DNA of 64,000 nucleotides from Candidatus Eremiobacteria bacterium (GTDB lineage Bacteria > Vulcanimicrobiota > Vulcanimicrobiia > Vulcanimicrobiales > Vulcanimicrobiaceae): NCBI GenBank assembly GCA_963758295.1, contig CAVWUU010000002.1, positions 192,001 through 256,000 of the forward strand, written 5' to 3'. The number at the start of each line of letters is the position of its first letter. The first letter of the stretch is position 1. Below the pieces are notes generated by a model that had not been told where the DNA came from, did no database searches, and worked only from the letters and a program-made list of their open reading frames with translations. This document shows positions 8,920 to 34,951 of this stretch, piece after piece. A program made the position numbers and the translations under genes.

Positions 8920-9957
8920 ATGGAATCAGAAACGCGCGTGCGCTTGACCGCACGTTCGTCGTGCGCCGGTTGAGCAAGTAAACTCGGCTCCGCCGAGCTG
9001 GCGCAGGTCTTGCGCCGCTTGCCCTCAACCGCGAACGACCGGGTCCTGGTCGGCTTCGATACGTCGGACGATGCCGGTGTGTTCATGCTGCGCGATGATT
9101 TGGCGCTGGTGCAAACCGTCGACTTCTTCACGCCGATTGTCGACGATCCGTTCGATTTTGGACGCATCGCCGCGGCAAACGCGCTCTCGGATGTTTATGC
9201 AATGGGCGGCACGCCTGCCTCGGCGCTCAACATCGTAGCATTTCCCGAAGATCTCGATCTTTCGATTCTCGAGCAAATTCTCGGCGGCGGCGCAACCATC
9301 GCACGTGAAGCGGGCGTTGCAATTATCGGCGGACACACGATCAAAGATCCGGAGCCCAAATACGGAATGGCGGTGACCGGAACGATCGATCCGCGCAACA
9401 TCATTACCAATGCCGGCGCGCAACCGGGCGACGTGCTCGTGCTTACGAAACCGCTTGGCACAGGTATCTTAGCTACTGCGCTCAAGCGCGATCGAATCGA
9501 TACGAACGATATGCAACACGCAATCAAGTGGATGACCACGCTGAACGATAAAGCGTCGCGGGCGATGCTCGCGGCCGGAGCACATGCCGCAACGGACATT
9601 ACCGGATTCGGATTGCTCGGACATGCAGGTGAAATCGCACGGGCTTCCGGCGTCCGCCTGCTCATCGATTCGGAAGCCGTTCCGGTAATGCCGTTGGTCG
9701 CTGACCTCATTCGCGAAGGAACGATTCCGGGCGGAACGCGCGACAACGAAGCACTTCACGCCGGGTTTACAACGTTCGATCGCTCCGTAAGCGCGCAGAC
9801 TCGGACGGTCCTTTCGGATGCGCAAACATCAGGCGGCTTGTTGATCGCCGTTCCGCGCGAAAATGCAGCGGCGTTGTTGCACACCCTGCGAGACGCGGGT
9901 GCGCTGGACGCCACGATAGGCGAAGTTCAGGAAGGCGCCGGCATTCTCGTCGCATGA
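8920..9957 (+). CDS. selD: selenide, water dikinase (selenophosphate synthetase), selenocysteine at codon 18 (TGA 8971-8973)
   Basis: GGAGAGG RBS then ATG 8920; MESETRVRLTARSSCAG-U-ASKLG is in frame with the 9010 ORF; SDDAG, QTVDFF, ANALSDVYAMGG, DITGFGLLGH, DAQTSGGLL motifs. Confidence 0.95.
8996..9019 (+). promoter_or_regulatory. SECIS-like hairpin of selD
   Basis: AGC-(bulged T)-GGCGCA GGTCT TGCGCC-GCT; loop begins about 32 nt after UGA; GCAGGTCT core matches the E. coli fdhF SECIS apex. Confidence 0.75.
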
Positions 9958-33020: not shown

Positions 33021-33072
33021 GTTCGATTGACGTAGAACTAATGCCGGTGCTATAGTTCGATAAGACTCGAAC
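33021..33072 (+). promoter_or_regulatory. sigma70 promoter overlapped by two GTTCGA-N6-TCGAAC operators
   Basis: TTGACG (33027) N18 TATAGT (33051) with extended TG; operators at 33021-33038 (1 mismatch) and 33055-33072 (perfect). Confidence 0.75.
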
Positions 33073-33075
33073 CAT

Positions 33076-33399
33076 ATGCCACGTATTTTTCAGCCGGATA
33101 GAAAGCAGATCCAGCTCGCGGAAGTCCTTTCCGCGCTAAGTGATCCCGTGCGGCTGCAAATGGTCAGCAGAATGCATGCGAGCGGTCCCGCCGCATGTAC
33201 CGCGTTTGCGCCGGATCTCCCAAAGTCCACACGCTCGCATCACCTGAAGGTGCTGCGCGAAGCCGGCGTCACCTGGACAGAAGTCATCGGCGTTGAGCGC
33301 TACGTTAAATTGCGCTACGATTGTTTGAACGAGCGTTTTCCCGGCTTACTCGAATCCGTCCTGAGCGCTGCGGCGCCGAGAAAGAATCGTAAGAAATGA
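33076..33399 (+). CDS. ArsR/SmtB-family transcriptional regulator
   Basis: ALSDPVRL, KSTRSHHLKVLREAG, RFPGLL. Confidence 0.9.
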   Translation: MPRIFQPDRKQIQLAEVLSALSDPVRLQMVSRMHASGPAACTAFAPDLPKSTRSHHLKVLREAGVTWTEVIGVERYVKLRYDCLNERFPGLLESVLSAAAPRKNRKK

Positions 33400-33707
33400 A
33401 GATCGCGCGAGCTCGCGAGTTCACTGCCGAACGCGCGTGGGGCGCGGAGAAACTTGCCGAGTTCGACGGCGTCACCGTTCGCATGCATTGGACGGACAAA
33501 CCGTATGACTGGCATGTGAACGACGGCTCGGAAGTGTTCACGGTCCTCGACGGCATCGTCGACATGCATTACCGGATCGCCGGTACGGAAAGAATTGCGC
33601 GCCTTCACGCCGCGGATTCGTTTGTGGTTGAAGATGGTGACGAGCACATCGCGCGTCCGATCGGCGAAGCCCGTGTGCTCGTTGTTGAACGCGAAGGTAG
33701 TGCGTAA
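33396..33707 (+). CDS. cupin-domain protein
   Basis: WHVNDGSEVF and GDEH cupin motifs; ATGA overlap with arsR. Confidence 0.85.
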   Translation: MKIARAREFTAERAWGAEKLAEFDGVTVRMHWTDKPYDWHVNDGSEVFTVLDGIVDMHYRIAGTERIARLHAADSFVVEDGDEHIARPIGEARVLVVEREGSA

Positions 33708-33709
33708 TT

Positions 33710-33976
33710 ATGGCGGTCGACGTGGAAACGCTCGGAAACGATCGTACGATCGAGCTGTACATCAGCCCAACATGCCCGTATTGCCGTCAAGCGATGGACC
33801 ACTATGATGGGCACGGCGTTTCGTACGTCGTTCACGATGCTCAGAATGACGCCGCCGCCCGCAAGCGGATGTTCGAATACGCCGCCAACGATCCGACGGT
33901 GCCGGCGATCGTCGTTGACGGCGACTACGTACAATCGGGTTGGGGTCGGCCGCCTCGAGGCTGAACGGTGTACTAG
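33710..33976 (+). CDS. glutaredoxin-like protein with probable C-terminal selenocysteine (...GWGRPPRG-U-TVY*)
   Basis: CPYC active site, TVPAI cis-Pro motif; TGA 33962-33964 followed by ACG GTG TAC TAG and a SECIS-like hairpin. Confidence 0.75.
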
Positions 33977-33994
33977 CGATCCGGTCGGATCGCT
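33975..33994 (+). promoter_or_regulatory. SECIS-like hairpin
   Basis: AGCGATCC-GGTC-GGATCGCT perfect 8-bp stem; loop starts 18 nt after the UGA. Confidence 0.7.
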
Positions 33995-34009
33995 CCGACG
34001 TTGTAATAG

Positions 34010-34951
34010 GTGTCCGAAAGCGAGGCTGCAGTGCACGGATCACCGGTCCCCTCGAAAATTCACGACTTCAGCCTGAAGCAACTCGATGAGTTGAAGTTCG
34101 TCTGTTCGCCCGAACTGTCGGCGATGTACAAGTTGAGCCCGTTCGTCTGGTATGACGATGGCCGCTACAAGCTACTCCTTCGCGTCGTGAACTTCTCGCT
34201 TAAGGCTTCAGATAAAGTCGCGCGCATTCACTATGGCGAGTCCGCCGACGGCGTAACATTCGACCTCGACGAAGCGCCCGTTATCGTACCCGGCGCCGAC
34301 CCTAGCGCCTTGGACAACGGCGGCTGCGAAGATCCCACGCTTGCCAAAGTGCGCAATGAATATTTTGTCTATTACAGCGGGTGGAACGAACGCGCCAAGC
34401 GCGGCGAACTGCTTCTAACAGCCGGCAGCGACATGCGTCATTTGAAGAAACGCGGCATCGCATTACCGTCTTCCGATCTCGCGCGCAACCCCAAAGAGGC
34501 CGAGATCACACGCGTTGCCGATGGCACATGGCGCCTATTCTTCGAATACGCGCACGACAACAAATCCAAAATCGGCATCGCGCGATCCGCGAACGTCGAC
34601 GGCCCGTGGGAGGTGCTCGCACCGCTCTTCGAAGCCCGGCCGGACCGCTGGGACTCTTGGCATTTGAGCACCGGTCCCATACTAATCTCGAATCCCGAAT
34701 TTCCGGTGATGTTCTACAACGGCGCCACACGCGACGCGCACTGGCGGATCGGTTGGGTCGTTTTCGATGCAACCTACACTCGCGTACTCGCCCGCTGCGA
34801 AGCACCGATCGTGCTTCCGCACATTAAACGCAACACGGACGACACGGACATCGCTTTCGCCGCTTCGGCTTTAGAAGCCGATAGCGCAATCCACTTATAC
34901 TATTCCGTCGCCGATCAGTACTGCTGCCGCGCCGTTATCGAGCGGGTTTGA
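34010..34951 (+). CDS. GH130-like/five-bladed beta-propeller glycosidase
   Basis: GCEDP, NPKEA, MFYNGA, IAFA..LYYSVAD motifs. Confidence 0.75.
   Translation: MSESEAAVHGSPVPSKIHDFSLKQLDELKFVCSPELSAMYKLSPFVWYDDGRYKLLLRVVNFSLKASDKVARIHYGESADGVTFDLDEAPVIVPGADPSALDNGGCEDPTLAKVRNEYFVYYSGWNERAKRGELLLTAGSDMRHLKKRGIALPSSDLARNPKEAEITRVADGTWRLFFEYAHDNKSKIGIARSANVDGPWEVLAPLFEARPDRWDSWHLSTGPILISNPEFPVMFYNGATRDAHWRIGWVVFDATYTRVLARCEAPIVLPHIKRNTDDTDIAFAASALEADSAIHLYYSVADQYCCRAVIERV

Follow-up and report, generated by a model that had tools for sequence, protein, structure and literature searches.

A probable glutaredoxin-fold selenoprotein of Vulcanimicrobiota with a C-terminal selenocysteine tail missing from database sequences

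The window, that is, the whole stretch of 64,000 nucleotides analysed here, contains a short redoxin gene whose in-frame TGA is very likely read as selenocysteine (Sec), judging from the codon and its surroundings in orthologs; the protein would then go on through the Sec, before which the databases end it, and for three residues more. We regard it as about 80% probable that the product is an 88-residue selenoprotein of the glutaredoxin fold, in which Sec85 (U85) is inserted by means of a SECIS element and the Sec-containing tail folds into the protein's own active-site groove to exchange electrons with the CPYC motif.

Reading frame and conservation of the TGA codon

The open reading frame begins at the ATG at position 33710 of the forward strand, on which all features of the gene lie, and standard translation stops at the TGA at 33962-33964, giving 84 amino acids. 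When this TGA is read as Sec, the protein has 88 residues and ends G-U-T-V-Y. The tail codons ACG GTG TAC (Thr-Val-Tyr) occupy 33965-33973, and the true stop TAG lies at 33974-33976. The original prediction had described exactly this geometry, from the CPYC motif to the C-terminal G-U-T-V-Y. The full coding sequence (33710-33976) was assigned to the glutaredoxin/NrdH-like fold on the basis of its match to PF00462 (E 3e-14) and of the fold matches given below. The CPYC motif (residues 22-25, with Cys22 and Cys25) is found at 33773-33784 in the translation and in the ortholog alignment. Its first Cys, Pro and Tyr are invariant in 64 of 64 aligned orthologs, and its second Cys is kept in at least 90%. 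T63-V64-P65 (33896-33904) takes the position of the cis-proline loop of thioredoxin-fold proteins; the proline is invariant, T-V is in a beta-bridge state in the structural models, and the cis geometry of P65 is assumed from homology. A possible weak ribosome-binding site, GAAGGT, is located at 33693-33698, 11 nt 5' of the ATG.

The codon was examined in a pool of 109 ortholog loci, drawn from related genomes and from genome and metagenome loci (for the metagenomes, the best 80 of 543 matches); removal of 8 duplicates left 101 distinct loci. All counts exclude loci L046-L071, which lack the tail and are either ordinary glutaredoxins or chance hits, as well as the 12 paralog loci L024-L035. The loci share kinship, and the counts are therefore not independent. 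Some entries are marked as unpublished, namely three of the 101 loci (L012, L016 and L020), paralog L035 and up to seven of the genomes tallied; the conclusions hold without them.

The codon at the position in question is TGA at 100 of the 101 loci and TGC at one. TAA or TAG, which the original prediction had named as the finding that would speak against Sec, occurs at none. The next residue is Thr at all 101 loci, with all four Thr codons in use. The true stop after the tail is TGA at 40 loci, TAG at 34 and TAA at 25; two loci have no stop within six codons, one being cut by a contig end and the other being the Cys ortholog described below. Among the 65 loci with a three-residue tail, codon positions 1 and 2 are nearly fixed and the third positions vary, and conservation drops past the true stop. 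The last tail residue at these loci is His in 58 and Tyr in 7, the gene studied here belonging to the latter. That the TGA arose through faulty assembly was ruled out, since 100 loci retain it, though the assembly does have indels (see trxB below).

The predicted Cys counterpart was also found. Locus L118, the only Cys ortholog among the 101 loci (54% identity), has TGC at this position within a full ORF of 85 amino acids, and it keeps G-C-T-I in a longer tail. A close ortholog is present in 18 of 61 related genomes, the own genome being one of them, and each of these orthologs ends G-U-T-V-[HY]-stop. When the whole phylum was searched, the gene turned up in 101 of 251 genomes, always with a single in-frame TGA; nearly all of these matches come from the own family, where the gene is present in 99 of the 160 genomes searched.

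It is worth considering the reading in which the TGA is a real stop and the hairpin behind it is a terminator or an RNA-stability element. Of the 305 database homologs, all 120 that were listed, among them the own protein, have as last residue the Gly that precedes the TGA. This agrees with such a stop, as does the fact that the hairpin taken by itself is only modestly better than shuffled sequences. A plain stop, however, would be expected to drift to TAA or TAG, as the downstream stop has done at 59 of the 101 loci, and no such change was seen. In addition, the three later codons vary like coding sequence, and a Cys ortholog exists. We consider a real stop very improbable, and the uniform ending of the 120 proteins is the truncation by standard annotation that had been anticipated. 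A terminator was ruled out: no U-tract follows the hairpin, and it is absent from the terminator scan.

At the TGA-equivalent site, 10 of the 12 distant paralog loci encode Cys and 2 have TGA. The Cys-only paralogs (L024-L029, L031-L033 and L035; for example, L025:1501-1734) mostly carry C-P-Y-T or C-x-x-C and end G-R-G-C-x, and L025 passes the NCBIfam model NF041212. Their neighbours are presumably a sugar-isomerase-type gene and hypF, in which case they would sit in a hydrogenase maturation cluster. The other two, L030 and L034, represent a second Sec-type paralog from a neighbouring family; they end G-G-G-U-[AT]-I-H-stop and have no P-P-R linker.

The SECIS-like hairpin and the selenocysteine machinery

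A SECIS-like hairpin, AGCGATCC-GGTC-GGATCGCT, with 8 Watson-Crick pairs lies at 33975-33994, almost wholly 3' of the coding sequence. Its GGUC loop (33983-33986) starts 18 nt past the UGA. The perfect stem and the spacing of the loop were thus as predicted. The placement of the stem stood in part: it is at the stop, but it overlaps the last two bases of TAG instead of following them. Similarly, the proposed likeness to the selD hairpin holds for the loop sequence and not for the spacing. The selD gene of the window (match 8941-9864) has its in-frame TGA at 8971-8973 and a GGUC-loop hairpin at 9006, where the loop lies 32 nt after the UGA and behind a second hairpin (all within 8971-9030). The 18-nt counterpart is fdhA on contig C1, which has one in-frame TGA and a GGUC-loop hairpin at 18 nt.

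The stability of the hairpin relative to shuffled sequences is modest, with z values of -2.0 for 33962-34010 (9 of 200 shuffles equally good), -2.7 for the hairpin alone and -0.6 for two longer segments. The combination of a GGTC loop and a stem of at least 7 pairs at 16-25 nt is found at only 10 of 68,008 TGA triplets genome-wide. According to the accessible part of PMC13188914, the bSECIS model comprises a loop of 3-9 nt that starts with G, a stem of 4-16 bp, a spacing of 16-37 nt and an MFE of -7.5 or lower; the hairpin of the redoxin gene fits this consensus on every point. The decisive evidence for Sec is the conservation across orthologs.

For the orthologs, a SECIS-like hairpin was defined in our own script, not bSECISearch, as a G-led loop of 3-6 nt at 16-25 nt with at least five uninterrupted pairs. 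It is present at 92 of 99 TGA loci, and both features expected downstream, conserved residues and a conserved hairpin, were found in homologs. In 500 shuffles the number was 7.0 +/- 2.5 loci (maximum 15), and other TGAs have such a hairpin in 290 of 4691 cases in the same loci and in 4153 of 68,008 cases in the genome (about 6%). In most of the seven TGA loci without such a hairpin the stem is short or interrupted; the Cys ortholog L118 does not pass either. When 63 loci were anchored on the GGTC loop, the first five pairs formed in 54, 59, 55, 53 and 53 of them, and slid registers gave 0-47. Stem positions stay paired through CG, GC, UA and AU swaps, for example with GC 33, CG 9, UA 5 and AU 5 in a table pre-selected for stems of at least 4 pairs. 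A second branch, with the tail T-V-H-D, has C-G-[U/G]-G-N loops (27 loci); this branch appears to be acidobacterial from its similarity to proteins placed in Acidobacteriota by NCBI.

At one locus (L076:3267-3305), the true stop and the GGUC hairpin are separated by an additional, perfect hairpin of 18 bp, with the TGA and the tail retained. This insertion moves the GGUC loop to about 58 nt from the UGA, far beyond 37 nt; the locus may be a copy in decay, or it may offer a way to probe how far a SECIS can stand from its UGA. Elsewhere the hairpin is under no coding constraint, since it lies beyond the stop, and the natural variants, about 90 in number, are therefore informative on the needs of SelB, which would be a G-led loop at 16-25 nt and a stem of changeable sequence.

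The machinery named in the original prediction, selA, selB and tRNA-Sec, is complete in the genome of this member of Vulcanimicrobiota (Eremiobacterota), of which 82% was recovered: selC is present, and selA, selB and selD score above cut-offs. The 18 carrier genomes among the 61 searched all have selA or selB, and 16 have both. Since selA is present in 58 of the 61 relatives (selB in 56), its co-occurrence with the gene is weak evidence. We consider it highly probable that SelB binds the hairpin and that Sec is inserted at U85.

Predicted position of the tail and its possible role

The closest solved structures are cGrx1 (7c10), BC3987 (3zij), E. coli NrdH (1h75) and Mrx1 (2lqq), with Z scores of 9.6-8.7 and rmsd values of 2.3-3.2 Å over 68-73 residues; Foldseek gave E values of 4e-4 to 1e-3 for 7c10 and 3zij/3zit. 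The matches span residues 11-82. The alignments with all four proteins end at residue 82, and these proteins have no counterpart of the Sec tail. The AlphaFold model of the studied protein, in turn, has no final helix after the last strand. Two models were made (mean pLDDT 93.8 and 93.6): one shows the studied protein with Cys in place of Sec, and the other, built on an alignment of 64 rows, shows the natural Cys ortholog. Both show a bridge state at T63-V64, W78, R83 and residues 85-86 (U/C85-T86). By elimination, residues 85-86 would pair with 63-64, and R83 with W78. This pattern suggests that the Sec tail occupies the substrate groove of the protein itself and would there be placed beside Cys22, like a substrate on a tether. 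In thioredoxin-fold enzymes, the residue before the cis-Pro clamps the substrate cysteine through backbone hydrogen bonds (PMC13269488, accessible part), and M88 and A106 of barley Trx clamp the substrate likewise (PMC3659290, accessible part). By analogy, W78 may be the counterpart of A106.

On the basis of these models, U85 would dock at the cis-Pro loop in the manner of glutathione or of a substrate cysteine. A Cys22-Sec85 selenenylsulfide would then form, and Cys25 would resolve the bond. We give this docking together with its resolution by Cys25 even odds. Cys25 is Ser in L021, L044 and P0123, and the resolving step would therefore not be universal. The freed selenolate arm could reduce an outside substrate, such as a disulfide, a peroxide or a metalloid species, and thioredoxin reductase would re-reduce the CPYC pair without glutathione. 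NrdH-type redoxins are re-reduced by thioredoxin reductase. Provided that Sec is inserted, the relay from thioredoxin reductase through CPYC and the Sec arm to the substrate is the reading that we favour, as a balanced call, ahead of metal binding and of a plug or sensor.

The thiol context of the relatives was also searched. With controls detected, gshB was found in 0 of 61 related genomes. The gene bshC was not found in the 26 genomes searched, and trxB is present in 59 of 61. Since gshB was not found in the 61 relatives, the tail, being tethered to the protein, may take over the part of glutathione. We tentatively propose, with less confidence than for the relay itself, that in a redoxin clade of Vulcanimicrobiota and Acidobacteriota glutathione has been replaced by a built-in, proline-hinged Sec arm in place of the last Grx helix, forming a three-centre Cys-Cys-Sec relay. 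In the trxB of the own genome (G000:C6:52620-53513), a base is missing at one point and a base is in excess about 40 nt away, and two in-frame TGAs fall in the interval. This frameshift is likely an assembly error, not Sec, in an assembly that has indels. A seleno-thioredoxin reductase in the own genome was ruled out, since the TGAs are flanked by indels and the other 58 trxB matches have no stop.

Alternatively, Sec could be inserted and, together with Cys22, Cys25 and the terminal His or Tyr, bind a metal or metalloid for sensing, chaperoning or detoxification, with no electron shuttling. The accessible part of PMC13188914 names metal ligation as a possible role of the Sec residue of UXX-star proteins, and the modelled position of the tail would suit a metal site equally. 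His, moreover, ends 58 of the 65 three-residue tails; the other 7, including that of the studied gene, nevertheless end in Tyr. An ArsR-like gene lies two genes upstream in the window, but ArsR and cupin neighbours are common to only one other locus examined. Furthermore, CPYC with T-V-P is the usual signature of an oxidoreductase. We consider metal binding unlikely.

The neighbourhood itself consists, at 33027-34951 on one strand, of a sigma-70-like site followed by closely spaced ArsR-like, cupin, redoxin and GH130-family genes, and the cluster is possibly an operon. The ArsR, cupin and GH130 neighbours recur in only one or two other loci examined. A long, unassigned ORF precedes the gene at 49 of the 101 loci, and rsmI is nearby at 42. 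In L099, an ORF of this type (950-2995) is long and hydrophobic, has no NCBIfam match and ends just 5' of the gene. No conserved redox or selenium operon and no conserved redox partner gene were found around the ortholog loci, and the neighbours offer no clue to function.

It is also conceivable that Sec is inserted and that the tail is regulatory, either as a plug that blocks the groove until it is reduced or as a selenium carrier, with the ratio of the 84- and 88-residue forms reporting the selenium supply. A tail modelled in the substrate groove would compete with substrates, termination at the UGA would leave a nearly complete fold (the matches cover residues 11-82), and 18 acidobacterial-type loci have a rhodanese-like gene upstream. 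The Cys ortholog L118, however, retains G-C-T-I without a UGA switch, and the gene is not adjacent to the sel genes of the window, selD being 25 kb away. We therefore consider a regulatory tail improbable, and the redox relay remains our preferred reading.

Relation to known Uxx-star families

The link to the glutaredoxin-like Uxx-star selenoproteins drawn in the original prediction was right. The best NCBIfam match is NF041212 (Uxx-star family glutaredoxin-like (seleno)protein), and the family is thus already catalogued. With 55.1 bits, the studied protein stays below the cut-off of 66. All 64 aligned orthologs match the model, and four acidobacterial-type orthologs and L118, the five whose scores were obtained, pass it with 71.6-75.5 bits. 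The protein would work in the manner of an Uxx-star selenoprotein; by score, it forms a branch under the cut-off of NF041212 within a clade of which the other members reach it. One Pyrinomonadaceae ortholog, HEX6717839.1, is named Uxx-star by NCBI, and its sequence also ends at the Gly before the TGA position.

Our literature search found no paper joining Eremiobacterota with selenocysteine, and PMC13188914 was the only paper found that covers Uxx-star and selenoprotein together. The accessible main text of BSepDB (PMC13326102) has no passage on the family or the phylum; its database or supplements may list these genes. The accessible part of PMC2398784 contributed nothing further. The clade may already be described in Haft and Tolstoy 2025 or Haft and Gwadz 2023. 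The same search, which drew on some sources in part, found no biochemical test of any Uxx-star protein; the studied protein is small, bears CPYC and has a natural Cys ortholog that can serve as control, and it lends itself well to such a test. The analysis corrects a systematic truncation, by which 120 of 120 listed homologs are without the likely catalytic residue, in a gene present in 99 of the 160 genomes searched in its family, and it extends the selenoproteome of Vulcanimicrobiota.

The UXX-star families 1, 2 and 3 (NF041114, NF041211 and NF047338) and the HUGP/GUXX-star fusion (NF045501) share the fold and the C-terminal G-U with the studied protein. None of their curated cut-offs was reached: the scores are 35.9 bits against 72 for family 1, 23.1 against 100 for family 2 and 33.2 against 325 for the HUGP fusion, and family 3 was unmatched. 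Families 1 and 2 and the HUGP fusion are given as predicted selenoproteins in Table 1 of PMC13188914, as far as accessible, where family 1 appears with UxxT and two Sec, in contrast to the CPYC and single Sec of the studied clade.

The likeness to NF041212 is closer, consisting of a small Grx fold of about 70-90 amino acids, an N-terminal CxxC and a Gly-Sec near the C-terminus. The name of that family, from which the number was read, implies two residues between Sec and the stop, whereas three follow in the studied protein and four in the acidobacterial-type branch; among the orthologs, L099 has exactly two and others have four or more. The studied protein further differs from NF041212 in its G-W-G-x-P-P-R-G linker and in an N-terminal extension of 12 residues. 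The Uxx-star family is known, and the studied protein belongs to an unannotated branch of it, with a probable Sec tail that is missing from the listed database homologs.
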